Positions 28,164 to 61,404 of a stretch of DNA of 64,000 nucleotides are shown one piece after another. The notes below the pieces were generated by a model, which saw nothing but the letters and a program-made list of their open reading frames with translations, made no database searches and was not told where the DNA came from. Source of the DNA: Bacillota bacterium (GTDB lineage: Bacteria > Bacillota > Clostridia > Christensenellales > UBA1242); contig WQSK01000001.1 of the NCBI GenBank assembly GCA_009787915.1, forward strand, positions 7,119 through 71,118. The letters are read 5' to 3'. The first letter of the stretch is position 1, and each line of letters starts with the position of its first letter. Made by a program: the position numbers and the translations under genes.

Positions 28164-28538
28164 ATGCCAACAGTAAATCAACTTGTAAAAGGTGGGCGCA
28201 AGCCAAGGACTTTTAAATCAAAGTCCCCTATTTTGGACAGCAACCCACAAAGACGTGGTGTTTGTATCCAGGTCAAAACAATGACACCGAAGAAACCGAA
28301 CTCGGCTCTTAGGAAAGTTGCCCGTGTGCGTTTGTCGAACAAACAGGAAGGTACCTGCTATATCGGCGGTATCGGACACAACCTGCAAGAGCACAGTGTT
28401 GTCCTTGTTCGTGGCGGTAGGGTTAAGGACTTGCCAGGTGTTCGTTATCACATTGTGCGTGGTACTCTTGATGCAGGTGGTGTTGCGAAACGCAAACAAG
28501 CCCGTTCAAAGTACGGCGCGAAAAGGGATAAAAAATAA
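28164..28538 (+). CDS. rpsL: 30S ribosomal protein S12
   Basis: [13 protein letters not shown]...[18 protein letters not shown]. Confidence 0.97.
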
Positions 28539-28792
28539 TGGATGCAGGCGATATTAAATTGACTCACTTTGGTGATGGTTGGGCTCAGATTCCCAAAAAG
28601 ACCACAATTACTGATAAGGAACTTGAGGAATATTTCCAGAGTTTGTCGCCAGATAAGGCTCAGCAAATGCTTGAAAAGATTACAAAAATCGTTTCAAAGA
28701 AATTTGGTCCGTCGATGGGACGTAGCCCACAAGAGGGATATGAGAAAGCACTCGGCAGAGAGCGCAAACCAGCACAAATGAGTGAGGCTTAA
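28538..28792 (+). CDS. hypothetical 84-aa protein inserted between rpsL and rpsG
   Basis: ATG overlaps the rpsL stop (TAATG). Helical, charged sequence. No recognised family. Confidence 0.45.
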   Translation: MDAGDIKLTHFGDGWAQIPKKTTITDKELEEYFQSLSPDKAQQMLEKITKIVSKKFGPSMGRSPQEGYEKALGRERKPAQMSEA

Positions 28793-28848
28793 AACAAAAT
28801 ATAGTACCCGATAGGCAGGGGAAGTAAGAAAAAAAGGAGAAATTAAAA

Positions 28849-29319
28849 ATGCCAAGAAGAAGTGGAATTGCACCAAGAGATGTGTTGCCAGACCCAAGGT
28901 TTGGGTCAAAAGTAATTACAAAAGTAATTAACCAAGTCATGCACGACGGGAAAAAAGGGATTGCACAAGGAATTGTGTACGAAGCCCTCGACCGTGCGAA
29001 CAAAAAACTTAATGTAGAGCAAATGACGATTTTCAACCAAGTTTTGGAAAACGTATCCCCGTTATTGGAAACAAAAGCGCGCCGTGTAGGTGGTTCAAAC
29101 TATCAAGTTCCTATGGAGGTTCGCCCTGTTCGCCGTCAGACACTTGCAATTCGTTGGATTGTGAAATATGCACGTGAACGTAGCGAGCGCACTATGGCAG
29201 AGCGTCTTGCGGGTGAATTTGTTGATGCTTATAACCAAACAGGTGGGGCTTTCAAGAAAAAAGAAGAAGTCCATCGTATTGCTGAATCGAACAAAGCGTT
29301 TGCGCATTATAAATGGTAA
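28849..29319 (+). CDS. rpsG: 30S ribosomal protein S7
   Basis: GGAG RBS. MPRRSGIAPRDVLPDPRFGS...KMAEANKAFAHY-type C-terminus. Confidence 0.97.
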   Translation: MPRRSGIAPRDVLPDPRFGSKVITKVINQVMHDGKKGIAQGIVYEALDRANKKLNVEQMTIFNQVLENVSPLLETKARRVGGSNYQVPMEVRPVRRQTLAIRWIVKYARERSERTMAERLAGEFVDAYNQTGGAFKKKEEVHRIAESNKAFAHYKW

Positions 29320-29336
29320 AAATATATTGTTCTAAG

Positions 29337-29364
29337 AGCGCACTCACGTATGGGTGCGTTTTTT
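29337..29364 (+). terminator. putative intrinsic terminator after rpsG
   Basis: Stem 29339-29343 / 29354-29358 (CGCAC/GTGCG) plus flanking pairs, followed by a T-run at 29359-29364. Confidence 0.5.
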
Positions 29365-29377
29365 CATATATAACGCT

Positions 29378-29902
29378 ATGGAAAAAAAGTGTTTCATGGG
29401 CGCAGTTACGGCAGATGGTTTTGTTGGTTTCTTTAAAGAAATCGTTGATATGTATGGGCTAAAAAAACTGTACATTATAAAGGGTGGCTCTGGTGTGGGT
29501 AAGAGTACTTTCATGCGGAAGTTCGCCGAGTTGTTTCCCCTAAACCCAAAGATGCTTGTTTATTGCAGCAATGACCCAAAGTCCCTAGACGGTGTTATCA
29601 TAGAGGACCTTGGAATCGGGATGATTGACGGGACGGCACCGCATATGACCGACCCAAAGTATCCAGGTCTTTGCGAAGAGATTATTGATTTGGCTGGGTT
29701 TATCGATTCCGAGAGGCTGGCGTCAACCGCGACCATTCAGGCGGTAAAGCAACGTGCTGATGAAAAAACGGTTGCTTATAACGAAGCATACACCGCATTG
29801 GCAAGGGCACGAACTGCGCACGCAAAACTTGAATCAATGTATACGGGTGCTGTGGATTTTGAATCTATAGATAAATTCTTTGACGCAAAGTTTCGGTCTT
29901 GA
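29378..29902 (+). CDS. P-loop NTPase, uncharacterised
   Basis: Walker A GGSGVGKST. ATG at 29378 preferred because a TATATA -10 lies 5 nt upstream. Confidence 0.6.
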   Translation: MEKKCFMGAVTADGFVGFFKEIVDMYGLKKLYIIKGGSGVGKSTFMRKFAELFPLNPKMLVYCSNDPKSLDGVIIEDLGIGMIDGTAPHMTDPKYPGLCEEIIDLAGFIDSERLASTATIQAVKQRADEKTVAYNEAYTALARARTAHAKLESMYTGAVDFESIDKFFDAKFRS

Positions 29903-34209: not shown

Positions 34210-37200
34210 ATGACTAACTTTAGAAGAAGAAGTGTTTTGCGAAAGTTTGCGGTATTGGGCATTGCATCAATATTCGTTTTGACAGGTTTCATTGGCGGGG
34301 CATTCGTGCCGTTGGTTCAACGTGCTATGGCTGCATCATTGGTTCCAAACATGAGGATTCAAAATCTCCCACGTCCAAGTGTCGAAATCGGAACACGTAT
34401 CCACGAGGCTGGTATTCCAACTGTTAGTGGTTTAGGCGGTGGCGACATTGTTTACATGGCACTTGTTCGCGGTGGAATTACAGAATTTCGTGCGCGCACA
34501 ACTGCGAACTGGAGTAACACGGGTGTCGACATGGTTGTGCCTCTGACAGCAGAATACAATCGCCGTGCAGTTTATTCATGGAGAATTTATCTTCAGCGTC
34601 CTGCAATCTCACCTGCTACTGGTTTCAGATACGACCTTCTTCATTCTCATAACATAGATGTTTACCAAGGTCAGTTCCGTTTTGAAATCCCGACCTCTGC
34701 AAGACATTACCACGATGGTAACGCTATAAGTTTCATCCCTAACGTGGCAATTCCTGGGCAACGTGTTCTTATGCCACTTCCTAACCAATTTATCGACAAT
34801 GCGGGGAATGATTTGTTTGATAACAATACCCCTGACGTTGCATTGATGCGTCGGGCAATTTTGGCGGACTGGAATCGTAACCAAATCCCAGGTGTGGCGG
34901 ATAGTGATGACCCAGCAAACGATGCGGTCAACACACAAATCGCGAACGACCCGAACCTTTTCCGCAGACTTGTTTGGGCAAACACAACAATTCAGTTCTT
35001 TGGCCCAGGTAAAGGCGCGGCTCCAAGACAAATATACACAGGTAACCAAGTAAACGACGCAACTGGTACCAATGCATCACGTGTTTTCCAAAGTTCACTC
35101 CGTGGTGAGTTCCGTGCCCAGTTTGAATTCAACCACCCACGTATTCAATCAAGAACAAGCACAGATTCTTGGCAAGTAGAAGGTGTTACAATCAACACAG
35201 GCGGTACATCTGTCACAGCCAACGAAGCAAACATCCGCGAAAACGTAGTGTTTACTATGCCACCTGCTTTTGGTGCTATGTCTGGTGCTTTTACATTGAA
35301 CCAATATTTCCAATTGCCATTGCCAACTATCAACATTGCGACACGCTCTGACACAGACGCTCTTGACCTTCCTATGGGGCACGTTTCTTTCCCAAACACA
35401 AACTCTATGGTAAGTTACACATTTATTACCGTAGAACATTTTGACCTCCAAAATAACAGAACAAATCTTTACAACAACATTCGTTTGACCGCAGAGAACG
35501 GATACCGTTTCCGTCCAACAACGTTTGGTTCTTTCCGATTTGTTTATCACACAACAACACCATTTGGTGTAGGTTTCGTAGAACAAATTGGTGCAAACGA
35601 CCCTCAATATCACAACCGTGTTGTAGTTGTACAAGATGGCGGGCAAAGTTTCATCCAATATACTCCGCACAACCTTTTCCGTATTACAAACAACGCTGTT
35701 GCACCGTCACTTAGATGGACGCTCCCGTTCAACTATCATTTGGTTTCAACATTGACAGGTGACGATGCGGCTGCGGTTACTGCGTACAACGCGGCGATGT
35801 ATAACACTGCTCTTCATATTCTTCCAACTCATACAATTGCTTTGGCCGAGGCAAACCCATTGTTCAATCTTGCGGCAAACAGCCCAGACCGTATTCTTGA
35901 ACACATTGTTCCAAGTTCAAACACGGCTATCGTTGAAAGAACACAACGCGATGGTGCTTTGTTTAACAACGCGCCTGACCTTTCACACTTTATGCCAGGT
36001 ATGGGAAGTACACCTGTAACAATCATCCCTACAAACGGACAAATTGTTATTCCTGCATTGTTGGGACTTAACAACGTTTCATCAAGCCGACAACTTACAT
36101 ACAGCATCACAATCACACGCAGACGTACCGACTCGGCAGATACCGACAGTGTTCAATTCACAACATCTCCGACTGCACAACTTGTAAATGATACAGACCG
36201 TTCTGTTTTCCGTCTTGATAACAGAAGGCCACTTATCATTGAATTCGGTCAAGGAACCGCAGAAGTACAACGCGGACGTTTCACAAACGGCACACAAAGC
36301 GAAGTACATATAAGAAGTTTCGGCAACACACAAATCCCAGTCGCGCAAACATATGAAATCGCAATTGAAATTATTGACAACGCTTCTGTTTTGGGCTCTG
36401 GCGGAAACATGATGACACCTACAATCAGACACTCTTTCAGAATCGATGACAACATTGGTAACACGGTTACCGACCACCAAGAACTCCGCCCGTCTTTCAG
36501 CGGTACCCCAAACCCAGTTCGCACAGGTCTTTATGTTCGTGACACACTTAACTTCCGTGAACTTGGTGTATGGTGTGATTCTTCAAACAATGTTGCAGTA
36601 GATTACTATATTGTTTGGAATACATCCGCTGGTGCTGCCGCCGACGGTTTCCAAACCAACGCTGTCCGTATCCAAGACAGACATATCCGTAGCAACACAA
36701 TCTTGTTCCCATTGGATGTACGTTCAAACCCTGATGCACAACCTCTTATTACTTATCTTGATGCAAACCCGTCGGCTTCGTTTACCATTGTTGCCATTGC
36801 AAGAAACAGACACGCACTTGTGAGCCAAGTTTATAATAATTTCCAACCACGTAGCGACACATACCCTGTAGACCCTACTGGTCGTAACGATGTGCTTACA
36901 TTTGACGAACTTCATACTTTCTTGACCGCAACAAATATTGTTGAAGCAAGAGATAATTTGCCTGCAGGAACAAACATTTCGTTCTCAAGGTTTACATTGA
37001 ACAACTTTGGTGGTGGGGTTGCACAAACACTTGCTCTAACACCAATAACAGGTGCCGTTCGCGACACACGTGTTAATATTACAGCAAATATCAGGAATGC
37101 GGCTGCTGGACAAATTGACACCAACATCAACGCGCAAGTTGTAACCCCGTCTGGCAGAACACTTACAGTTTCGGGTGCACCTTTTAACACATTGGTAACT

Positions 37201-39300
37201 CAAACTGGGACGGAGTTCAGAAACTTGACAAACCTATCGTTCTTGCCAACCGAAAGGGGTACGCATACGTTGATTATCACCGCAAGAAACAGGGCAAATG
37301 TTACCGTATACACACACGAGTTTGAAGTAGGCGGTACGGCGACAGTTATACCTGTGCTTGAGGGCGGGGCAACAACACTCCGTATCGGTCAAGTTGGTAA
37401 CTTGCCAAGGTTGTATGTTTTCTATAATGATATTAGACACATTGTTGGTTCTGATAACAGAAGTATTGTTCCAGAAGCAACCCCAAATGGTACACCTATC
37501 GGGACATTCAACACACGTGTTCTTGCAACCAGCGACGAAAGTTGGATTCCAAGCGTCCACTGGGATTCAGGAACAGTGTTCTTCCTAAGCGAGGATACAT
37601 ACACACTTGTATTTGAAATTTATCTAAACAGCGCTCCTGCTACTCCTATCACAGTTTATCGTCCTATCACAGTTACAGGTTTGACATCGGATGACTTTGA
37701 TGTATCGCTTGACAGTTTCAGACAAGATTATCTTGCCCTCCCAGGTCGTGGTTTCACACACGCGAGTCCAACAGGCAGCGCAGGAACTTTCCGTGACTAT
37801 AACATTTTGCCAGACTTTGTAAACCAAATCGCTGGTGACATGACACTTTCTGATTTCCAACTTGACCAAGGTATGGTGCATAACAATGTTGTTGGTGCTA
37901 CAGGGAGCCAACGTGATTCGTTCAGTTTCGGTCGTATCGTGCTTCCAAACGTTGCTCCTAATTTCAATGACCTCGTTCGTGCAGGTATGACACATCTTAG
38001 ACCTGATGACATCCGTACTCGTACAACAGTTACACACAGCCGACGTCCAGCAACACCAATTTTTGATTCTGCCACAGGTACAGAGCAACACTTGATTGTC
38101 AACGGTTCACTTGCGGAACACTATTATTTCTTCCCAAGCGGTACTGTTGAGGTTCCAGTAGACGAAAGACGCAGACCAGGTGACGTCGGTATGCCTGCAA
38201 CAATTCCAACTCCAACACCATCACTTGCAGACGCAGTTGCACAAAATTTACGCAAAGTCGTTGACTACTATGGTAATGCTTGGTTCAGGGCAACTGCTGT
38301 GGCAACAGATACAGATTGGTTCACGTTTGACGATTATATCTATAACCCAAGCCGACTTGTTGACCGTTCACAATCTCCTGATGGTATCTACACAATTGTT
38401 TACACGGTCACAATTCGCGGTATCAGCCAAACACGTGAATTCCGTATTGCGGTCGGTGACGTTGCAATTCCTATAATCACATTCTTGGCTGATGAAGATG
38501 AACTCTTTGCCGACCGTGACCCAGGTGGCATGTTCACAATTGAAACCGCACGTGACTTGGCGGTCAACCCAGCGGGCGGAAGAACAACAATCCAAGAAGA
38601 AGGTTTCTTTGCACCTTGGTGGGTTGCGCACAACATGGAAATCCGTATTACCCGACCAAACGGTGACAACGTATCTTGGACAACCGACACAACTGCACCG
38701 ATTGACGGAGCAAACCTATTCCGTACCCCTGCAGAGCAACTGATTAATTTCTATGACAGCATGGAAGCGGTTGCGGGTGCAAACCCTCCTGCCGTAGGAA
38801 CAAACCAATGGGGCTTCCCAATCACCAACGCAAATGACGAGATGAGCATGATTCGACGCGGTGCTGGTGACCGTGAGGGCAGACAATGGAGGTTTAGATT
38901 CCAAGACAGTGGGGACTATACAATCACATTTGAAATTCAAAGTGACAGTGGGCAACGTACTTCGGTTTCAAGAACAGTTCGTATCAGCACTCCTGAAACA
39001 CCGACCCGTATTGCTGCACAAACAATTTGGGGCGCCGTGTTGATTGTTATATCTTCAGGTTTGTTAATTGGTGTTATAGTTTACTTTATCCAAACTGGAC
39101 GCAAGACAAAATTCCAGGGTACAGGCGGTAAACCAACCACTCCTGGACCAAAAGGTGAAAAGAAGTTCATGGACCGCTTTAAGAAAAAAGACAAAGCGGA
39201 CGCGCCTAAGGTCGAGGCTCCGAAAAAGGTTGATGCGCCAAAAGCGGATAAGGCTCCGAAAGCCGTTGCGGCCGACGAAGTCAAACCAAGTGACGAGTAA
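34210..39300 (+). CDS. giant (1696 aa) surface protein: signal peptide, large ectodomain, C-terminal TM and Lys-rich tail
   Basis: Signal-like N-terminus ending AMA. C-terminal helix WGAVLIVISSGLLIGVIVYFI followed by a KKDKADAPK-type tail. Confidence 0.8.
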   Translation: MTNFRRRSVLRKFAVLGIASIFVLTGFIGGAFVPLVQRAMAASLVPNMRIQNLPRPSVEIGTRIHEAGIPTVSGLGGGDIVYMALVRGGITEFRARTTANWSNTGVDMVVPLTAEYNRRAVYSWRIYLQRPAISPATGFRYDLLHSHNIDVYQGQFRFEIPTSARHYHDGNAISFIPNVAIPGQRVLMPLPNQFIDNAGNDLFDNNTPDVALMRRAILADWNRNQIPGVADSDDPANDAVNTQIANDPNLFRRLVWANTTIQFFGPGKGAAPRQIYTGNQVNDATGTNASRVFQSSLRGEFRAQFEFNHPRIQSRTSTDSWQVEGVTINTGGTSVTANEANIRENVVFTMPPAFGAMSGAFTLNQYFQLPLPTINIATRSDTDALDLPMGHVSFPNTNSMVSYTFITVEHFDLQNNRTNLYNNIRLTAENGYRFRPTTFGSFRFVYHTTTPFGVGFVEQIGANDPQYHNRVVVVQDGGQSFIQYTPHNLFRITNNAVAPSLRWTLPFNYHLVSTLTGDDAAAVTAYNAAMYNTALHILPTHTIALAEANPLFNLAANSPDRILEHIVPSSNTAIVERTQRDGALFNNAPDLSHFMPGMGSTPVTIIPTNGQIVIPALLGLNNVSSSRQLTYSITITRRRTDSADTDSVQFTTSPTAQLVNDTDRSVFRLDNRRPLIIEFGQGTAEVQRGRFTNGTQSEVHIRSFGNTQIPVAQTYEIAIEIIDNASVLGSGGNMMTPTIRHSFRIDDNIGNTVTDHQELRPSFSGTPNPVRTGLYVRDTLNFRELGVWCDSSNNVAVDYYIVWNTSAGAAADGFQTNAVRIQDRHIRSNTILFPLDVRSNPDAQPLITYLDANPSASFTIVAIARNRHALVSQVYNNFQPRSDTYPVDPTGRNDVLTFDELHTFLTATNIVEARDNLPAGTNISFSRFTLNNFGGGVAQTLALTPITGAVRDTRVNITANIRNAAAGQIDTNINAQVVTPSGRTLTVSGAPFNTLVTQTGTEFRNLTNLSFLPTERGTHTLIITARNRANVTVYTHEFEVGGTATVIPVLEGGATTLRIGQVGNLPRLYVFYNDIRHIVGSDNRSIVPEATPNGTPIGTFNTRVLATSDESWIPSVHWDSGTVFFLSEDTYTLVFEIYLNSAPATPITVYRPITVTGLTSDDFDVSLDSFRQDYLALPGRGFTHASPTGSAGTFRDYNILPDFVNQIAGDMTLSDFQLDQGMVHNNVVGATGSQRDSFSFGRIVLPNVAPNFNDLVRAGMTHLRPDDIRTRTTVTHSRRPATPIFDSATGTEQHLIVNGSLAEHYYFFPSGTVEVPVDERRRPGDVGMPATIPTPTPSLADAVAQNLRKVVDYYGNAWFRATAVATDTDWFTFDDYIYNPSRLVDRSQSPDGIYTIVYTVTIRGISQTREFRIAVGDVAIPIITFLADEDELFADRDPGGMFTIETARDLAVNPAGGRTTIQEEGFFAPWWVAHNMEIRITRPNGDNVSWTTDTTAPIDGANLFRTPAEQLINFYDSMEAVAGANPPAVGTNQWGFPITNANDEMSMIRRGAGDREGRQWRFRFQDSGDYTITFEIQSDSGQRTSVSRTVRISTPETPTRIAAQTIWGAVLIVISSGLLIGVIVYFIQTGRKTKFQGTGGKPTTPGPKGEKKFMDRFKKKDKADAPKVEAPKKVDAPKADKAPKAVAADEVKPSDE

Positions 39301-39331
39301 TCTTTTTTGACCAGACAACAGAATAACAAAG

Positions 39332-39355
39332 CGGGGGTGGGAAACTCCCGTTTTT
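39332..39355 (+). terminator. intrinsic terminator of the giant gene
   Basis: Stem CGGGGG (39332-37) / CTCCCG (39345-50), 7-nt loop, T5 run at 39351-55. Confidence 0.7.
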
Positions 39356-39360
39356 GTTTA

Positions 39361-39437
39361 ATCTGGGTTTTTAACTGGGATATTTCTGGGTTTAATCCAG
39401 GTTTTTTCTGGGTTATTCTTGGGTTTAATCTGGGTTC
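39361..39437. repeat. seven phased 11-bp tandem repeats, consensus (T)TCTGGGTTTAA
   Basis: GG(G) cores end at 39367, 39379, 39390, 39401, 39412, 39423 and 39434, giving intervals of 12, 11, 11, 11, 11 and 11. Confidence 0.85.
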
Positions 39438-39507
39438 CGCGAACCCATTCCCCAGTCGCTTTGCAACACCTCTTTTGCAAAAACCCCCGCCCTAACGGGC
39501 ACCTTAG

Positions 39508-39616
39508 AAAAACCCCCGTCTGCCTTACGGCATCCACCCCCTTTACAAAGGGGGAATTTTTACCCGAGCCCATTCCCCCTTTCTTAAAGGGGGTGTCGCA
39601 GAGCGACGGGGGTTTT
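39508..39616. other. GC-rich multi-hairpin element (possible four-way junction)
   Basis: Closing helix AAAAACCCCCGTC (39508-20) / GACGGGGGTTTT (39605-16). It encloses hairpins TGCC-TTAC-GGCA (39521-32), CCCCCTTT..AAAGGGGG (39536-53) and CCCCCTTT-CTT-AAAGGGGG (39575-93). Confidence 0.5.
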
Positions 39617-39660
39617 AAAAAGCGCGCGCCCGTAAGAGGGGATGTTTACTGCCAATTCGC

Positions 39661-39752
39661 TTGACATATTATACCACACAATATATAATAATACTATACC
39701 TCGCTGCCACTTGACTTTTTACCCTAAGGGGTAAGGGGTAAGGGGTTTTTTA
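39661..39752 (+). promoter_or_regulatory. consensus promoter plus conserved 5' leader with three AAGGGGT heptads (copy 1)
   Basis: TTGACA (39661-66), 17-nt spacer, TATAAT (39684-89). The leader begins ATACCTCGCTGCCACTTG and ends TTACCCTAAGGGGTAAGGGGTAAGGGGTTTTTT. Confidence 0.7.
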
Positions 39753-39788
39753 TTGCCTAAATTTCCCCTCAATCAAAAGGAGAAATTT

Positions 39789-40682
39789 ATGACGAACGTA
39801 GATGCGGAACAAACAGGTTTCAGTAGAAAAGACATTGAAAACAAAGTAGGCACGATAAGGGCGAATGCCGAAAAACTTCTTGAGGATTATAATGCCCGCG
39901 CGGTTGTGTTCGACCCGAAAGAAATTGCCAAAGCGGAAACAGGATATGTACAGGGCGGGACCAACTGGGACGGCAGGGGTTTCATGGAGGACATCTTGAG
40001 GCCTATGACACAGGTCGAGGTGAATCGGGTCATGGTGAACTTGCAACAAAATATTTTGGAAATCCTTGATGCGGAAAAGAATCCAGAGTTAAACTCGGGG
40101 GAACTTAAAGGCAAAACCGTTATGGGAAAGTTTGGTTCCACAGTCAATGGGTTCAAGGAACATAGAAATGTGTTTTCGCACCTCTTGTATCACAATATTT
40201 TGGCGAACGATACAAAGGACTGGGGCGGGAACAATAGTTCAAAGGGCAAATTGCTCTATCATTATGCGGACCTGAGGCGGGATGATTACGAAAGCCCAAT
40301 AGAACAATCTAATTCAATGACCCGTGCATTAAAGTTTTTAAACAGTCACGAAAATGGATGTGACCATCGCATCGATGGTATAAAATCTGTTTACTGCGGT
40401 TTTGAATTTGACCGTGACGGAAATCATAGTTATGCTAACAAAAAACGCGAAAGAGAGATTGACACTATGGTCAAGAACTATGATATCAAGGGCCTGACCG
40501 AAGTCGTTGAGAATTTGCTTGTTGGGGCTTTGCCAAATACATGGGGAAATGAAACCGAGAGAAGAAATATCATCAGGCAATATGGTGACCTAACCGAGTT
40601 GGTCGAGTGCGTAAAAATGCATCAAAAAATACACGACAAAGGCTTTCAAGTTGACTTGTCTACGCCAGAGCCAGAACTTTAA
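39789..40682 (+). CDS. hypothetical protein
   Basis: Strong RBS (aaaggagaaatttATG). The alternative TTG at 39753 sits 7 nt after the last GGGG of the leader. Confidence 0.55.
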   Translation: MTNVDAEQTGFSRKDIENKVGTIRANAEKLLEDYNARAVVFDPKEIAKAETGYVQGGTNWDGRGFMEDILRPMTQVEVNRVMVNLQQNILEILDAEKNPELNSGELKGKTVMGKFGSTVNGFKEHRNVFSHLLYHNILANDTKDWGGNNSSKGKLLYHYADLRRDDYESPIEQSNSMTRALKFLNSHENGCDHRIDGIKSVYCGFEFDRDGNHSYANKKREREIDTMVKNYDIKGLTEVVENLLVGALPNTWGNETERRNIIRQYGDLTELVECVKMHQKIHDKGFQVDLSTPEPEL

Positions 40683-40730
40683 TTGTGTTTAACAATCCGC
40701 CCGCATGGACATAACTGTGTGGGAGGAACT

Positions 40731-40967
40731 ATGATTGCCGTAAAAAACTTACAGAATCTAAACGAAATCTTGTTACAGGAAGAATTGTTGCAGGCCGTTG
40801 CAACGCATTATCTTGACATGGTGTCGGACAAAAACGCCACGAAACTTTTGGAAGAAATAATTAAGACCAGCAAAAAGAACCACGCCGAGGTTATAAGTTA
40901 TCTGGAGCACGACCTTGGGAAAAAGCCGTTGTCAGGTGGGTTGGTGAATAAGGGAGGTAAAAAATGA
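40731..40967 (+). CDS. hypothetical small helical protein
   Basis: GGAGG RBS before ATG 40731. Overlaps the next gene by 4 nt. Confidence 0.45.
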   Translation: MIAVKNLQNLNEILLQEELLQAVATHYLDMVSDKNATKLLEEIIKTSKKNHAEVISYLEHDLGKKPLSGGLVNKGGKK

Positions 40968-41224
40968 AAGCCTTGAACGACAAATTTATGATGCAGGATG
41001 TTTTGGCGCACTTGCGTGACTTGATGACGCAGGGCGGTATGGCAATTCAGCATTCGAACTGTAAAAACATGCGCGCTGTGGTTGAAAACGTCACCAAGCG
41101 CACGACCGAGAACCAATTTTTGGTTTTCAAATACATGAACGAAAACAATATGTACCCAATCAAAAACGTGACCGACCAGGAACTTTGCGAGGTCATAAAT
41201 TGCCACACTAAACAGGCTAACTGA
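40964..41224 (+). CDS. Coat_F-domain (spore coat protein F-like) protein
   Basis: LNDKFMMQDVLAHLRDL...NCKNMRAVVENV...FLVFKYMNENNMYP matches my recollection of the CotF family pattern. Confidence 0.6.
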   Translation: MKALNDKFMMQDVLAHLRDLMTQGGMAIQHSNCKNMRAVVENVTKRTTENQFLVFKYMNENNMYPIKNVTDQELCEVINCHTKQAN

Positions 41225-41294
41225 TTTGTGTATATCTTTGTTTATAAAACCCTGCACGGCGCGGGGTTTTTTGTTGCTTTGGAAAAACTTTCTA

Positions 41295-41381
41295 TTGACT
41301 CGCTCTGGTTCACGTGTCATAATATACACATACCTCGTTGCTACTCGGCCTCGCAAGGGGCAAGGGGCAAGGGGCTTTTTT
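41295..41381 (+). promoter_or_regulatory. consensus promoter plus conserved 5' leader with three AAGGGGC heptads (copy 2)
   Basis: TTGACT (41295-300), 17-nt spacer, TGtCATAAT (-10 at 41318-23). The leader reads ATACCTCGTTGCTACTCGGCCTCGCAAGGGGCAAGGGGCAAGGGGCTTTTTT and is followed by ATG 41382. Confidence 0.7.
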
Positions 41382-41936
41382 ATGCAAAAAATTCTTCATT
41401 ACATACTTAGTTTCATTATTGGTGCGGGTATCGGATATTTGTTCTTTTGGCTATTCGACGGCTGGGGTTGGACGGCGACTCCGTTCGCGATAATAATCGC
41501 ATTTTTCATTATTGGGTGGCTGGACGAAAGAGGGGATTCTGTGGATTTCTATGAAGAAGATGAAGAACCAGAATCCAAAAAATTGGGAGATTGGACGTTG
41601 GGCGAATTACGTGACGAGTGTGCAGAGTTAAATATCAAAGGATATGGAACTATGACGAAAGACGAGTTGATACATGCCATATGCAAGCATGATTTTGAAA
41701 ACGAATTTACTCCTGACGAAATGCGCAAGCATTTGAAAAGTCGTGGGCTTGAAGCCGATGGGTTGACACGGAAAGAAATGATTGACTTGAACAACGCGTA
41801 TGACAACGACGAAGAAGATTACGAAAATTATACGCTCGAGTATCTAAAAGAACTATGTGATGAAAACAAAATTGGATACAAGTCTGGGAGTGGTAAAGAT
41901 GAACTCGTTAAATTACTTGAAAAACATGACCTTTAG
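41382..41936 (+). CDS. 2-TM membrane protein with three HeH/Rho_N/SAP-like motifs
   Basis: N-terminal helices, then three repeats of the L..ELR..C.ELNIKGYG.MTKDELI type. Track start 41226 rejected because it covers the promoter and leader. Confidence 0.6.
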   Translation: MQKILHYILSFIIGAGIGYLFFWLFDGWGWTATPFAIIIAFFIIGWLDERGDSVDFYEEDEEPESKKLGDWTLGELRDECAELNIKGYGTMTKDELIHAICKHDFENEFTPDEMRKHLKSRGLEADGLTRKEMIDLNNAYDNDEEDYENYTLEYLKELCDENKIGYKSGSGKDELVKLLEKHDL

Positions 41937-41951
41937 TGGTATAATAACATT

Positions 41952-56173: not shown

Positions 56174-56262
56174 GGAGGGTTACCGAAGTGGTCATAACGG
56201 GGCGGTCTTGAAAACCGTTAGGGTGCAAGCCCACAAGAGTTCGAATCTCTTACCCTCCTCCA
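56174..56262 (+). tRNA. tRNA-Ser (anticodon UGA), class II with long variable arm
   Basis: Hand-folded: acceptor GGAGGGT/ACCCTCC, anticodon loop CTTGAAA, variable arm GGGTGCAAGCCC, T-arm AGAGTTCGAATCTCT, discriminator T, encoded CCA. TGgTATAAT promoter at 56149-57. Confidence 0.9.
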
Positions 56263-57776
56263 AGCGATTTAATATGCGGACTGGAAAGTTCGTTGTAATC
56301 AATGCCTTGTTCGTGCAAGGTAATTTTAAGGTCGTTTAGGGTTATCGGATCGACTTTGTCAAAGTTATAAAACATAAAAATTCCGTGTTCCAAAACCCAA
56401 ATAGAATTAACAAATCCATGTATGATTTTCTTTTGGTACGTAGGGTCGTTTATATCTCCGCCAATAAATTGTTGCAGTCGTTTTCTATAATCTTCCGCAG
56501 TTCTCGGCAAGTTAGATATATGTCGGAGTTTTGACAACTCGATGTTTAAGTCACTTTTTTGTATCTCGAGGTCTTTGCTACGTTGGTTGATTTTTGAAAC
56601 TATTGTTTGACCTTGTGCCACAAGTAAAGTGTCAATCAATTTTTCAATTTCCCGGTCGATGACAGATATGCGTTTTTCGTACTCTTTAACCCGTTGCGTG
56701 GTTATATTATTGGCGTGATAATCAGAGAGCAATTTACTTGCACGTTCTATGTTCTTTGCGTTTGATATGAACTCGATAATGTCTTGGACAACCGACTTTT
56801 CTAACTCGGACTTGTTCTCGTTTGATTTATGACAATCCTTGAACTTGTGTCTGTTACTGCAAACATAGTATCTAAAATTTGTTTCGCCATTTCGGACTTT
56901 ACCGCAAACGCCATTCATAGTAGCACCACAATGTCCGCAGTATGCCTTGCCAGTCAAAAGATACTCGACCTTTGCTTTACCTTGGGCGGACAAACGCTTT
57001 TTCGTTGCACACATCTTTTGTACTTCTTCAAAAAGTTTATCGTCGATAAGCCTGGGGTATATGTTGGTGTATTCAACACCATGACGTTCAAGTATTCCGA
57101 TGTAGTTTTTGTTTTTCAAGTTGTGGTAAATGTTTGTGACACTCCAAGGCTCGCCACTTCTATTGCGTATACCTTTTTCGTTAAGTTCTTTGCAAATCTC
57201 TTTCTTAGGTTTTCCGCTTGCATAGTCTGAAAAAATCTTTTTCATAATTTCGGCTTTGGGTTTATCAATTTGAATTTTCTTGTCAACAACCTTGTACCCA
57301 TACGTCACAATTCCGCCAGTCCAGTTCCCCTTGTCAAGATTGATTTGATTGCCACGTTTAATTTTCTGAGAGAGTTCCACTGAATAGAACTGGTTGTAAC
57401 CCTCTATGACACTTTCTAACAAAATGCCCTCTGGCGAGTCCGCTATGGCTTCCGTTGCCGACACGACCTTAACGCCTGCTTCTTTAAGTTGTCGTTTATA
57501 AACCACACTTTCATATTTGTCCCTAGAAAATCGGTCAAGTTTATACACCAAAATCACGTCAAATATTTCTTGTTTGCTGTCCGAAATCATGCGTTGAAAT
57601 TCAGGACGTTTGTCATTAGTCCCCGTCATAGCACGATCAACATACTCGCCTACAATGGCGAGATTTTGTCGTTGGGCAAATTCCCCACAGACTTTAACCT
57701 GTCCTTCAATCGACTGTTCCGTTTGGTTGTTGGAACTGTACCTTGCGTAGATTACTGCTTTGTTCATTTTACACAC
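56250..57776 (-). CDS. large serine recombinase
   Basis: N-terminal resolvase domain AVIYARYSSNNQ...SIEGQ, recombinase domain, Zn-ribbon (CGHCG...C..RYYVC), coiled coil. The last codons overlap the tRNA-Ser 3' end. Confidence 0.9.
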   Translation of the reverse strand: MCKMNKAVIYARYSSNNQTEQSIEGQVKVCGEFAQRQNLAIVGEYVDRAMTGTNDKRPEFQRMISDSKQEIFDVILVYKLDRFSRDKYESVVYKRQLKEAGVKVVSATEAIADSPEGILLESVIEGYNQFYSVELSQKIKRGNQINLDKGNWTGGIVTYGYKVVDKKIQIDKPKAEIMKKIFSDYASGKPKKEICKELNEKGIRNRSGEPWSVTNIYHNLKNKNYIGILERHGVEYTNIYPRLIDDKLFEEVQKMCATKKRLSAQGKAKVEYLLTGKAYCGHCGATMNGVCGKVRNGETNFRYYVCSNRHKFKDCHKSNENKSELEKSVVQDIIEFISNAKNIERASKLLSDYHANNITTQRVKEYEKRISVIDREIEKLIDTLLVAQGQTIVSKINQRSKDLEIQKSDLNIELSKLRHISNLPRTAEDYRKRLQQFIGGDINDPTYQKKIIHGFVNSIWVLEHGIFMFYNFDKVDPITLNDLKITLHEQGIDYNELSSPHIKSLGGG

Positions 57777-58488: not shown

Positions 58489-58521
58489 CACTTAAAAATT
58501 CTAAAAGAGGTGGATAATCAC

Positions 58522-59448
58522 ATGGACAAGTTCATGTCAAAACGTGTTGAGAGGGTTTTGAAACCTAACGCACATTTATTATCTAAACAAAAGAGAGAGC
58601 AAGTAAATACTCGGATAAATCGGTTTAAGTTCTTTACTGAAATCATTTACTATCACGAACCTTTTGATATCCTGACTGGTAAGAAAGATTATAACTGGGT
58701 AGATACTGAAACTGGCAAAATCATCTCAGCGAGTAAACGAAAAGAGATAACAGACCAAGAGCAAATTGACGAATACGCAAGTCGTGGCGAGATTTTGGAA
58801 ATCGACAACGGATTTGACCGCAGTCAATACGAGAGTTGTCGCAGAGCAAAAGACAATTTTTATGGATATGCTTTGTGTAATGACTGGGTTTATTTTTGTA
58901 CTTTTACGATTGCGAAAAGCGAACATGACCATGATGACAAAGCAACAAAATACTACTGGCAAATGTTCCGCCAAAAGTTACAAAAGAGATTTCCAACTGT
59001 TAAGATCCTTGCAGTTCCTGAACGCCACGCCAAAGGCAACATTCATTTTCATGCTTTACTTGGGGATTGTGACTTAGAAAATATTTTAGTCGTGGCAATC
59101 AACCCACACACAAGCGAACCTGTATTACAAAGTGGTCGACAAGTTTATAATTTGCCACTCTGGGACAAAGGTTTTTCAACTGTTGTTAAAATCGACCAAG
59201 AGAGTATTGAAAACCAGTTGAAAGCAATCAACTACATTATTGGATATGTGACCAAGCAAGAGAACAGCATTGGGCTTAATCAGAAACGCTATTATCGAAC
59301 TAGAAACTTGGATTTCAAAAACACCGAGATAAAGTTTACTGACAAAGCGAAATATGAGAGTCTGCTATTAAGTACGTTTGATATAAACGCAAAACTCGTC
59401 AAACACAAAGAGAACGACAGAATGATTGTTTTTAGGGTGTACAATTAA
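58522..59448 (+). CDS. HUH rolling-circle replication initiator (two-Tyr, phiX gpA / gokushovirus VP4-like)
   Basis: Motif 1 FCTFTIA, motif 2 HFHALLG, motif 3 [11 protein letters not shown] 58522 follows an AGAGG RBS. Confidence 0.75.
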
Positions 59449-59473
59449 GAAGGTTAATGGTACAATCACAACG

Positions 59474-60451
59474 ATGAAAATCGTTTCATTTTTTGCAGGT
59501 GCTGGGGGTCTTGACCTTGGCTTTGAAAAAGCGGGGTTTCACACTGTTTGGGCGAATGAATACGATAAAACAATTTGGGCTACTTATGAAAAAAATTTTC
59601 CTAATTCTAAACTTGATAAACGAAGCATAACAGATGTATCTCCCAAAGAAGTTCCCGATTGTGACGGAATCATTGGCGGACCGCCATGTCAAAGTTGGAG
59701 TGAAGCCGGTGCGGGGCGTGGCATTGATGACGATAGGGGTAAATTGTTTTTAGACTATATTAGGATATTAAAAGATAAAAAGCCAAAGTTTTTCTTGTGT
59801 GAAAATGTGGGCGGTATGCTTTTAGATAAACACAAAGTTAATTTCGATAAGTTTATTTCCGAGTTTGAAAGTGCAGGATATAATGTTTCTTGGCAACTTG
59901 TTGACGCTAATGATTTTGATGTCCCTCAAAATCGCAAGCGTGTCATCATCGTGGGATATAGAAAAGATTTAAATAAAAAGTTTGAATTTCCACCTGTGCA
60001 AGAATATAAACCAAATTTGAAAGACGCTATATGGGATTTGCGACAAGCCCAACCTGCTAAACAGCATAATAAGTCATGGGGGCTTGAATTACCAATTCCG
60101 AATCACGAATATATGAATGGCGGATTCTCTACAATCTTTATGTCACGTAATCGTGTACGTTCTTGGGACGAACCTTCTTTCACTATCCAAGCAGGTGGCA
60201 GACACGCCCCTATCCACCCACAAGCCCCTAAAATGCTTTTTGTCGAACAAAACAAAAGAATATTCGTTCCCGGTAAAGAAGATGATTATAGGCGGTTGTC
60301 CGTGCGTGAGTGTGCAAGAATACAAACATTCCCCGATAGTTTTATTTTTATTTATAATGACATTGCCGACGGTTACAAAATGGTGGGTAATGCCGTGCCA
60401 GTAAACCTAGCGTATGCGATTGCAAAAAAGATAAAGGAAGATTTGAAATGA
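59474..60451 (+). CDS. DNA (cytosine-5) methyltransferase, M.HaeIII-like
   Basis: Motif [46 protein letters not shown]. The TRD segment [33 protein letters not shown] resembles M.HaeIII as I recall it. Confidence 0.9.
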
Positions 60452-61404
60452 GAACAACAATAAACTCAACAATTAAAGGCAAGGCATATGAATACGCTTG
60501 CGTGTTGGCGATAAAGGAACTTGTCACGCCTATTCGTCCAGTTGAAATCATAGCGAATTCAAGTCTTGAAATAGCAGAACAAAGATATAACGAAATCACG
60601 CAAGACGAGCAAGCCGAAATGTTGAGATCCGCAAAAGCGGGCATGAGCAAAATTATTGAAATGGAACCCAAAGTAACCGACGACGGAGATGATAAATTGA
60701 CCATATCGCTACAACCCGATAATTTGGCGAAAGGTGGGGATATTCGTGATGTCCTGATTATCCGACGTTCAATCAAGTGGGAAATCGGAGTTTCGGTTAA
60801 ACATAACCACGAGGCGTTAAAACACTCACGGCTTTCGATGAGTATTGATTTTGGCAAACTTTGGCTTGGTGCAAATTGTTCCAAAGATTACTTCACTGAA
60901 ATAAAACCTTTGTTTGACATGTTGTCAAAAGAAAAGTCTTGCGGGAAATTGTGGTCGCAGTTGCCAAGCAAGGAGAATGCCGTATATGTTCCGTTATTAA
61001 CTGCTTTCAAAAATGAGTTTATTAAACTTAATTCTCAAAACGAAGACGTAACCGAAAATCTAATTCGCTATCTGCTTGGAAGCAACGGGAAAGACTATTA
61101 CAAACTTATCCACCGCAATAATAACATTGCTACGATTATTCCATTTAACTTGTTCGGCACATTAAACACAAGCGGTAAAAACAAGCCAACTATAACTATC
61201 CCAAATATCGAATTACCTACGCGAATTATTGAGTTTGATTTCAAAGAAAAATCACAAACCACGTTGATATTAACAATGAATAATGGTTGGTCAATTTCTT
61301 TCCGAATTCACAATGCAAGTTCCAAAGTTGAAACAAGTTTGAAATTCGATATTAATTTACAAAGCAAGCCCGAAAAAATGTTTTATATAGATGTTAAGTG
61401 GTAA
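60448..61404 (+). CDS. putative cognate type II restriction endonuclease
   Basis: ATGA overlap with the MTase stop. 318 aa. No independent motif recognised, so the call rests on position and size. Confidence 0.5.

Follow-up and report, generated by a model that had tools for sequence, protein, structure and literature searches.

In the chromosome of an uncultured, gut-type bacterium of the Clostridia (Firmicutes), two small sets of accessory genes are each preceded by a sigma-70-type promoter and a shared short leader, in which the heptad AAGGGGY stands three times in tandem. This duplication raises the question of what such a unit does for the genes behind it. We studied both copies in a 64-kb stretch of contig WQSK01000001.1 (the whole of this stretch is referred to below as the window) and looked for further copies in related DNA. 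Our analysis identifies the leader as a member of a small, real but, in the data that we reached, rare family of promoter-plus-leader cassettes. Its anatomy, its family, its predicted fold and the rank of its hairpins among those next to T-runs are shown by the sequence analysis. As to its function, we see about an even chance that the leader is a promoter-proximal intrinsic terminator (an attenuator) that is portable together with its promoter and that also buries a Shine-Dalgarno (SD)-like sequence and a start codon.

Two copies of one promoter-leader unit

Both copies are located on the plus strand (copy 1 at 39661-39755 and copy 2 at 41295-41384; Table 1). Each consists, in this order, of a sigma-70-type promoter, a distance of 7 nucleotides (nt), the sequence ATACCTCGYTGCYACTYG, a C-rich strand, (AAGGGGY)x3, a run of six T residues (T6) and an NTG codon. 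A previous inspection of the letters by a model (the sequence-only reading) had reported two promoters, the identical 7-nt distance and each of the parts up to T6, and we recovered all of them base for base; its view of the element as a conserved 5' leader is supported, and this leader starts at about the transcription start. The conserved 5' strand, an 18-mer, begins 7 nt past the last base of the -10 hexamer in both window copies, with six bases in between. Between the 18-mer and the heptads, copy 1 carries ACTTTTTACCCT and copy 2 carries GCCTCGC. The ACCUC at 39698-39702 of copy 1 is able to pair with the GGGGU of any heptad. In copy 2, the ATG codon at 41382 follows directly on T6.

The 18-mer has no further match in the 64-kb window, even when three mismatches are permitted, and the double heptad does not occur in it beyond the two copies; as statistics of uniqueness these counts are circular, because both patterns were derived from the same two copies. 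Identical copies, each with exactly three heptads, are present in three independent assemblies of the organism. Since the three assemblies agree, the number of heptads is not visibly unstable.

Two further copies precede unrelated genes

A scan of metagenomes with the pattern ACCTCG-N10-40-AAGGGGNAAGGGGNTTTT yielded six matches, two of which are convincing (L129:6581-6634 and L131:1059-1006). Both stem from JGI sample 3300027864, which is also home to two relatives of the window organism. Their promoter reads TTGACA-17-CATAAT with TG, and their leader, ACACCTCGGTGTCCATCGCCTCGCAAGGGGCAAGGGGCAAGGGGTTTTTTATTG, begins 8-9 nt past the -10 hexamer (6573 to 6581 in L129; 1068 to 1059 in L131). The position of the promoter and the third heptad are common to these two loci and the window copies, and L129 and L131 also carry the apical hairpin of copy 2 (GCCTCGCAAGGGGC) and the tail of copy 1 (TTTTTTATTG); none of these features was demanded by the search pattern. 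The sequence AYACCTCGNTG is invariant in all four copies, and each of them keeps one order of parts, with the promoter, a gap of 7-9 nt, this sequence, the pyrimidine arm, three heptads, T6 and ATTG or ATG.

Downstream of the leader, L129 encodes a three-helix membrane protein of 121 amino acids (aa), and L131 encodes a 95-aa protein and a 208-aa membrane protein; these genes are unrelated to each other and to those of the window. Similarity between the two loci extends from about -55 as far as the downstream SD while their coding sequences are unrelated, and the whole promoter-leader unit has therefore been copied. The window copies (W1 and W2) match each other from +1 to +55. We speak of a small cassette family because two more copies precede unrelated small genes; occurrence of the motif upstream of other genes in related DNA, on which the sequence-only reading had staked its claim, is thereby documented.

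The other four metagenome matches (L128, L130, L132 and L133) have neither the promoter nor the fold and were discarded as chance pattern matches. A match to TACCTCGCAACTTGA in L126 (at about 3021) was dropped as a candidate third leader, since it sits inside a conserved minus-strand small-protein gene. This gene encodes a small cysteine-rich membrane protein and is conserved upstream of the large surface-protein gene described below (L126:2883-3101; L124:2774-2959); the TACCTCGCAACTTGA on its opposite strand is a chance look-alike of the 5' strand of the leader.

With a covariance model of the four copies (R1), we searched the window, 13 kb of its flanks in the same genome and about 150 kb surrounding uvrB in seven relatives, and no additional copy came to light. 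Three scans of viral contigs with leader and heptad patterns gave 0 matches. In total, the related DNA, about 320 kb, yielded four copies that belong to at least two uncultured genomes; this count is a lower bound, because the window's own contig lies outside the metagenome collection that was scanned. When the whole window was compared with Rfam 15 at gathering scores, only two transfer RNAs (tRNAs) were found, and a search of the region 39300-41450 at E<=10 gave no match overlapping either leader, in agreement with the sequence-only reading, which recognised no known riboswitch or leader family in it.

We also scanned a genome collection with the bare triple heptad AAGGGGNAAGGGGNAAGGGG, and the matches listed served only as a control. 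They contain no Bacillota and come instead from cyanobacteria, planctomycetes, acidobacteria and others. No T-run follows any of the 132 AAGGGGN arrays in the matches listed, all from unrelated phyla, and a C-rich strand precedes just one of them. The extra features shared with L129 and L131, the identical assemblies and the T-run-free control arrays show independently of each other that the leader is more than a chance element. Tandem AAGGGGN arrays with 3-7 units occur widely in cyanobacteria, planctomycetes, acidobacteria and gemmatimonadetes (L003-L122), and in L023 and L024 arrays on the plus and minus strands face each other about 80 nt apart.

Fold and terminator signature of the leader RNA

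In every copy, the leader is predicted to form a single long hairpin with imperfect pairing, which begins 2-4 nt inside the predicted 5' end and extends to the U-run. The hairpin is clearest in L129 and L131, where it has three tiers of five pairs each, with ACCUC:GGGGU next to the U-run, then UGUCC:GGGCA and the tip GCCUC-GCAA-GGGGC (-22.5 kcal/mol, z = -3.5). The tiers of copy 2 are CCUC(41333-41336):GGGG, UUGCU:GGCAA and GCCUC[GCAA]GGGGC. Copy 1 is able to adopt the three-tier fold, and its minimum-energy fold is register-shifted (-19.4 kcal/mol). The consensus fold comprises 12 pairs, with 97% of the cells paired as compared to 39-75% when the partner strand is slid. Pairing of the C-rich strand with the G-rich heptads, as proposed in the sequence-only reading, thus recurs in the folds of all copies; its picture of one C-strand that chooses among three G-strands is better replaced by a single three-tier hairpin in which each pyrimidine segment pairs with one heptad. 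All changes in aligned pairs are C or U opposite G. The G-runs are fixed and the pyrimidine arm drifts because G pairs with both C and U, and since this pairing constraint explains the invariance of the G-runs, the perfect heptads alone do not demand a protein that reads their sequence. A G-quadruplex was rejected by inspection, as there are just three G-tracts with no fourth nearby.

For a test of the T-runs, the 50 nt upstream of each of the 521 runs of at least five T residues on both strands of the window were folded. A hairpin abuts the run in 196 of these cases, and the two leaders take ranks 1 and 2 (-20.8 and -19.1 kcal/mol). Their hairpins are more stable than those of genuine gene-end terminators, e.g., the ones at 41267 (-13.2 kcal/mol) and 39351, and they show the hallmark of an intrinsic terminator: a stable hairpin rich in G and C that ends 0-2 nt before a U-rich run. 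Folds and ranks alike bear out the expectation that pairing up to the third heptad creates a terminator-like hairpin beside the U-run. The leader tail GGGGTTTTTTATTGC is nearly the same as the tail GGGGTTTTTTGTTGC of the real terminator at 41263, and the tail of copy 1, GGGGTTTTTTRTTGC, also closes this bona fide terminator. No other terminator is present between the upstream gene and the cassette in L129 and L131. The genes follow the T-run after about 40 nt in three copies and after 0 nt in copy 2, which leaves no room for an extra promoter in between.

In all four copies, the third heptad resembles an SD, as had been suspected from the G-runs, and is placed 7 nt ahead of an NTG codon. That the start codon itself lies 7 nt past the last GGGG holds for copy 2, in which ATG 41382 begins a hydrophobic stretch of 53 codons and has no credible rival as the start of the 184-aa open reading frame (ORF). 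It does not hold for copy 1, where the 297-aa gene on record begins with ATG 39789 behind a canonical AAAGGAG and not at the in-frame TTG 39753; this likely start is located 43 nt past the last G (39745). Although AAGGGG is SD-like, all three heptads are paired in the predicted folds, with a P(unpaired) of 0.10 for the third heptad of copy 2. The SD of the 297-aa gene is likewise mostly paired (P(unpaired) 0.21) and is covered by a second hairpin (Table 1), of which L129 and L131 have a weaker CUCC...GGAG equivalent. When the 5' arm was blocked in silico, the main SD became more accessible (copy 1, from 0.21 to 0.88; copy 2, from 0.10 to 0.72; L131, from 0.45 to 0.91; L129, from 0.51 to 0.67), and blocking the heptads gave no such rise. 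In the constrained folds with a blocked 5' arm, the heptads are free to pair with a downstream anti-SD (CCCCU or ACUCC).

The accessory genes and the insertion that carries them

The genes uvrB, uvrA, gyrA, rpsL and rpsG and a gene for an ABC-F protein mark the window as part of a bacterial chromosome. Its proteins are on record under a 'Firmicutes bacterium' metagenome-assembled genome (MAG), and the closest UvrB sequences, some of them labelled Christensenellaceae, are 72-76% identical. The window is thus chromosome of a Christensenellales-like Firmicutes MAG. The idea that it could be a phage was dropped because uvrB, uvrA, gyrA, rpsL and rpsG were seen in it; BLAST comparisons of the region with near and distant phages, and of one leader copy with plasmids, gave no match.

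In three relatives (L124, L126 and L127), the orthologue of a 1696-aa surface protein is followed within about 10-35 nt (9-32 nt in the individual comparisons) by the orthologues of a 114-aa and a 130-aa protein and then by uvrB. In the window, the large surface-protein gene occupies 34210-39300, to the left of the leaders. Orthology at the flanks was checked (32%, 58% and 64% identity), and because the flanking orthologues nearly adjoin in the three relatives, we regard the intervening segment (Table 1) as an insertion; the label of accessory genes in the sequence-only reading is therefore apt. The proportion of G and C in the insertion is the same as in its flanks.

Table 1. Features of the insertion and of the two promoter-leader units (window coordinates).
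Feature	Position	Strand	Evidence or remark
Lineage-specific 2.65-kb insertion	39301..41951	+	both leader copies and four accessory genes; without counterpart in three relatives
Copy 1 promoter TTGACA-17-TATAAT	39661..39689	+	12/12 consensus positions
Copy 1 conserved 5' strand (18-mer) ATACCTCGCTGCCACTTG	39696..39713	+	sequence reading
Copy 1 apical hairpin ACUUUUUACCC, loop UAAG, GGGUAAGGGGU	39714..39739	+	minimum-free-energy fold
Copy 1 heptads (AAGGGGT)x3	39726..39746	+	3' arm of hairpin
Copy 1 T6 run (to 39751), then ATTG	39746..39755	+	TTG 39753 in frame with downstream ORF
Second hairpin UAAAUUUCCCCU / AGGAGAAAUUUA	39758..39789	+	inverted repeat, 11/12 base pairs; covers AAAGGAG SD, adjoins ATG of 297-aa gene
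297-aa orphan gene, copy 1 operon	39789..40682	+	only self-match among 5.8 billion proteins
78-aa protein gene, copy 1 operon	40731..40967	+	Pfam search
86-aa Coat_F-domain protein gene, copy 1 operon	40964..41224	+	Pfam search
Ordinary intrinsic terminator ending copy 1 operon	41246..41270	+	terminator scan
Copy 2 promoter TTGACT-17-CATAAT with upstream TG	41295..41323	+	10/12 consensus positions
Copy 2 conserved 5' strand (18-mer) ATACCTCGTTGCTACTCG	41330..41347	+	sequence reading
Copy 2 leader, three-tier hairpin, then C + U6	41330..41381	+	minimum free energy -20.8 kcal/mol, z = -2.1
Copy 2 heptads (AAGGGGC)x3	41355..41375	+	third heptad is the only SD-like sequence for ATG 41382
184-aa protein gene behind copy 2	41382..41936	+	two N-terminal hydrophobic helices; Rho_N/SAP-type helix-extended-helix motifs

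Apart from itself, the 184-aa protein matches only one sequence, a version of it with 99% identity in the same organism. Since neither this protein nor the 297-aa protein has homologues outside the organism, a comparison of leaders based on orthologues is impossible. The products encoded behind the four leaders (297, 184, 121 and 95 aa) do not include a hydrophobic toxin of <60 aa, as would be expected of the leader of a type I toxin.

The left edge of the insertion is formed by a 360-nt non-coding, repeat-rich stretch (39300-39660) that is not found in the relatives. GTTTAATCTGGGTTTTT occurs in it four times (39356-39439), as do nested C5/G5 palindromes further on (39509-39616), and the RNA fold predicted for the stretch is much stabler than those of shuffled sequences (z = -5.3); the stretch has no Rfam match. 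Toward the right edge, a TTGAAA-17-TATAAT promoter with TG (41917-41945) is located inside the 3' end of the 184-aa gene, shortly upstream of the 114-aa gene. Because this promoter precedes the 114-aa gene, the conserved 114-aa, 130-aa and uvrB genes have probably retained a promoter of their own despite the insertion.

Elsewhere in the window, the segment 56174-63500 starts with a tRNA-Ser gene, followed by the gene for a large serine recombinase (56250-57776, minus strand), by that for a Rep ORF2/G2P-type protein (58510-59448) and by genes for a C5 cytosine methylase and a HaeIII-type endonuclease (59426-61404); a DUF4325 protein is encoded in the same block. It looks like an element integrated at a tRNA gene that carries a restriction-modification system, and it recurs in other samples (L135-L137). 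At 28164-29902, rpsL and rpsG are 310 nt apart with an 84-aa ORF (28538-28792) between them, and rpsG is followed by the gene for a 182-aa protein without a Pfam match instead of by fusA.

Discussion

A strong constitutive promoter followed by a leader terminator is the usual layout of Firmicutes operons that are controlled by antitermination, e.g., hut. In the reading that we favour, the strong housekeeping-type promoter of the cassette would fire, and the RNA would zip into its hairpin tier by tier from about the third transcribed base, as the three pyrimidine segments of the 5' arm (ACCUC, then UGYY, then GCCUC or ACCC) pair with the three AAGGGGY heptads. The last tier would join the conserved 5'-terminal ACCUC to the third GGGG directly against U6. 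Because this base tier adjoins U6, the finished hairpin would be an intrinsic terminator, and most transcripts would therefore stop as an RNA of ~50 nt. The default state would thus be off, with most transcripts terminated and the SD-like heptad hidden: the base helix would bury the third heptad, 7 nt before the NTG codon that is the real start in copy 2, and in copy 1, L129 and L131 the second local hairpin would cover the main SD as well. Expression of the downstream accessory genes would consequently need both read-through and an open hairpin.

Relief would have to come from outside, because so short a leader has no alternative antiterminator fold. The invariant 5' strand emerges from transcription about 40 nt before its partner, and the heptads emerge last. 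A factor of unspecified nature may hold this strand (AYACCUCGNUG), so that the base helix is blocked and the heptads are freed for the downstream anti-SD; we favour such a factor because the strand emerges early and because blocking it in silico frees the SD. Alternatively, general factors (NusA/NusG, elongation rate) could set the level of read-through without a dedicated regulator. In B. subtilis, terminators with imperfect stems depend on NusA/NusG (PMC8060035). With little confidence, we also put forward a bolder version, namely that accessory genes acquired horizontally by Christensenellales-like Clostridia form a small regulon, marked by the cassette and governed by an unspecified protein or RNA that captures the AYACCUCG strand or the AAGGGG units, and that the triple-heptad arm of the terminator, doubling as an anti-anti-SD, would constitute a new antitermination system.

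A number of points weigh against an attenuator. Termination, its conditionality and its trigger are all inferred from sequence and folding. The ~50-nt leader folds as a single hairpin in all copies, with no alternative antiterminator fold; there is neither a shared alternative fold of the 5' arm nor an upstream aptamer or antiterminator, as would be expected of riboswitches, T-boxes or ribonucleic antiterminator (RAT)-type leaders. Among the ~50 window proteins scanned, we found no known RNA-binding antiterminator domain and no candidate regulator. A simple rule-based terminator scanner (contiguous stem, loop of 3-8) does not call the leader hairpins, only because of their internal loops. The fold of copy 1 is no better than those of its shuffles (z about -1), and at minimum energy the conserved ACCUC of this copy remains single-stranded. 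Statistical covariation is absent among the only three distinct sequences that exist: 0 aligned pairs are changed on both sides, and the shuffle control for covariation is uninformative, since the shuffles equal the observed value. The covariation that the sequence-only reading saw between the last base of the heptad and the base before the C-strand stands to the extent that the exchange of an A-U (copy 1) for a G-C (copy 2) apical closing pair is a genuine swap, but it is a single event. Finally, the U-run could be a mere spacer between SD and start codon.

Two other mechanisms of control were rejected. Q-type antitermination finds no basis, as the promoter spacers share nothing and inspection revealed no good -10-like pause element. 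Attenuation by a leader peptide is not compatible with the 5' arm, which contains no ORF with an SD; ORFs of 3-4 codons after the U-run of L129 and L131 keep their frame across a 3-nt indel and are too weak a support for a leader peptide.

The fact that neither an antiterminator structure nor a regulator turned up would also suit a constitutive 5' stem-loop that tunes expression by shielding the messenger RNA (mRNA) from 5'-end-dependent decay (RNase J/Y type) and by damping translation, with the U-run mainly as a spacer and termination as a fixed leak. We hold this explanation to be possible but rather unlikely. It is in line with the start of the hairpin close to the predicted 5' end in all copies, with the NTG codon placed exactly 7 nt past the third GGGG in each of the four, and with invariant G-runs opposite a drifting pyrimidine arm, a pattern that suits a constraint on pairing alone. 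In Bacillus, mRNAs are known to be stabilised by SD-like sequences and 5' structures (STAB-SD, hbs; PMC5737220, PMC7509114), and the leader resembles these stem-loops in its hairpin a few nt from the 5' end and in the SD-like purine runs of its 5' untranslated region (UTR). However, the perfect T6 right after the stablest hairpins of the window is the signature of a terminator, for which known stabiliser hairpins have no need. Furthermore, the SD-like runs of the leader, three with a fixed period and followed by U6, are paired in the predicted folds and would thus probably not be free for 30S subunits as STAB-SD requires, and the real gene in three copies has its own SD about 40 nt downstream. 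From general knowledge, hairpin RNA thermometers and other SD-sequestering 5' UTRs can be set beside the leader as well: copy 2 is one imperfect hairpin with G-U pairs whose 3' arm is the SD, with the AUG 7 nt on. Unlike in thermometers, the real SD is located further downstream in three of the four copies, and the U-run and a stability of -20 kcal/mol point to termination and not to melting. We find it improbable that the ~50-nt transcript is itself the main product, an independent small RNA that would act in trans, for example as a decoy that draws off a protein or C-rich RNAs, and leave the genes with incidental read-through. A promoter with 12/12 consensus positions ahead of the strongest terminator-like hairpins of the window does have the look of a small-RNA gene, and the cassette precedes unrelated genes; yet almost all bases are paired in the hairpin so that no seed region is left, all four copies point into a gene without another promoter (with the start codon of copy 2 directly after the U-run), and the duplicated unit of L129 and L131 extends to the downstream SD.

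The sequence-only reading had likened the triplet to the binding sites of HutP. As in the hut terminator (PMC2425495), a strong constitutive promoter and a GC-rich hairpin with a U-run precede the genes, and three NAG units stand 7 nt apart inside the terminator; the arrangement AAG-GGGY-AAG-GGGY-AAG, present in all four copies with an exact 7-nt period, matches the three XAG units with 4-nt spacers (XAG-N4) that are bound by one face of HutP (PMC2425495), and the AA dinucleotides are invariant though mostly unpaired. A three-fold symmetric RNA-binding protein that reads the AAG-N4 units with a new specificity and thereby prevents the terminator nevertheless seems very unlikely to us. HutP needs two XAG-rich sites joined by a linker of 12-17 nt, of which the 5' site is single-stranded and bound first (PMC2425495), and this is where the analogy fails: the leader has one NAG-rich site only, its repeats make up the 3' arm instead of a single-stranded 5' site, AG is absent from the 5' arms of W1, W2 and L129/L131, and there is no XAG array within ~30 nt downstream. 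Within the terminator the repeats emerge last, which would leave a binder almost no time; with the heptads blocked in silico the main SD stays buried; and pairing alone accounts for the invariance of the G-runs. The leader, at ~50 nt and starting at +3, has no hutP or histidine-utilisation context, the downstream genes being orphans or encoding small membrane proteins, and no HutP domain or other candidate was found among the ~50 window proteins scanned. Least probable of all, and by our estimate very unlikely, is a functionless remnant near promoters by chance, either a decayed palindrome of tandem heptads or a fragment of a small mobile element. In its favour, AAGGGGN arrays are common in other phyla, the family is tiny, both window copies are located in an insertion beside the very repeat-rich 360-nt spacer, and the 5' arm reads as a decayed complement of the heptad array, which suggests that the leader originated as a palindromic heptad repeat. 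But promoter-relative position, three heptads, T6 and NTG have been kept at four loci in at least two organisms with diverged surroundings, the number of heptads is stable across three assemblies, and no T-run was seen behind the 132 arrays among the matches listed. The heptanucleotide tandem repeats of cyanobacteria and other phyla share with the leader the AAGGGGN unit, occurring three or more times; they differ from it in their 3-7 units, in having no T-run and no complementary strand among the matches listed, and in their unrelated host organisms.

The terminator leader that we favour has a parallel in reused or mobile promoters, in which very similar promoter regions stand before unrelated genes (PMC3575422). 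This is the situation in L129 and L131, whose near-identical unit from about -55 to the SD lies upstream of non-homologous genes. In contrast to reused promoters, the distant copies conserve the transcribed leader and not the promoter spacer, and terminal repeats or marks of transposition are not established. The cassette is very narrowly distributed and previously undescribed, while the underlying kind, a terminator leader that occludes a ribosome site, is familiar; since the principle of leader termination and SD occlusion is well established, the cassette adds a case and not a concept. If the hairpin does gate both transcription and translation, promoter, terminator and hidden ribosome site would be united in a compact module of ~90 bp. 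Such modules would represent a leader family not yet listed, with a terminator arm that is unusual in being built from repeats, and an uncultured gut lineage would reuse the module such that newly acquired genes stay silent until they are needed.

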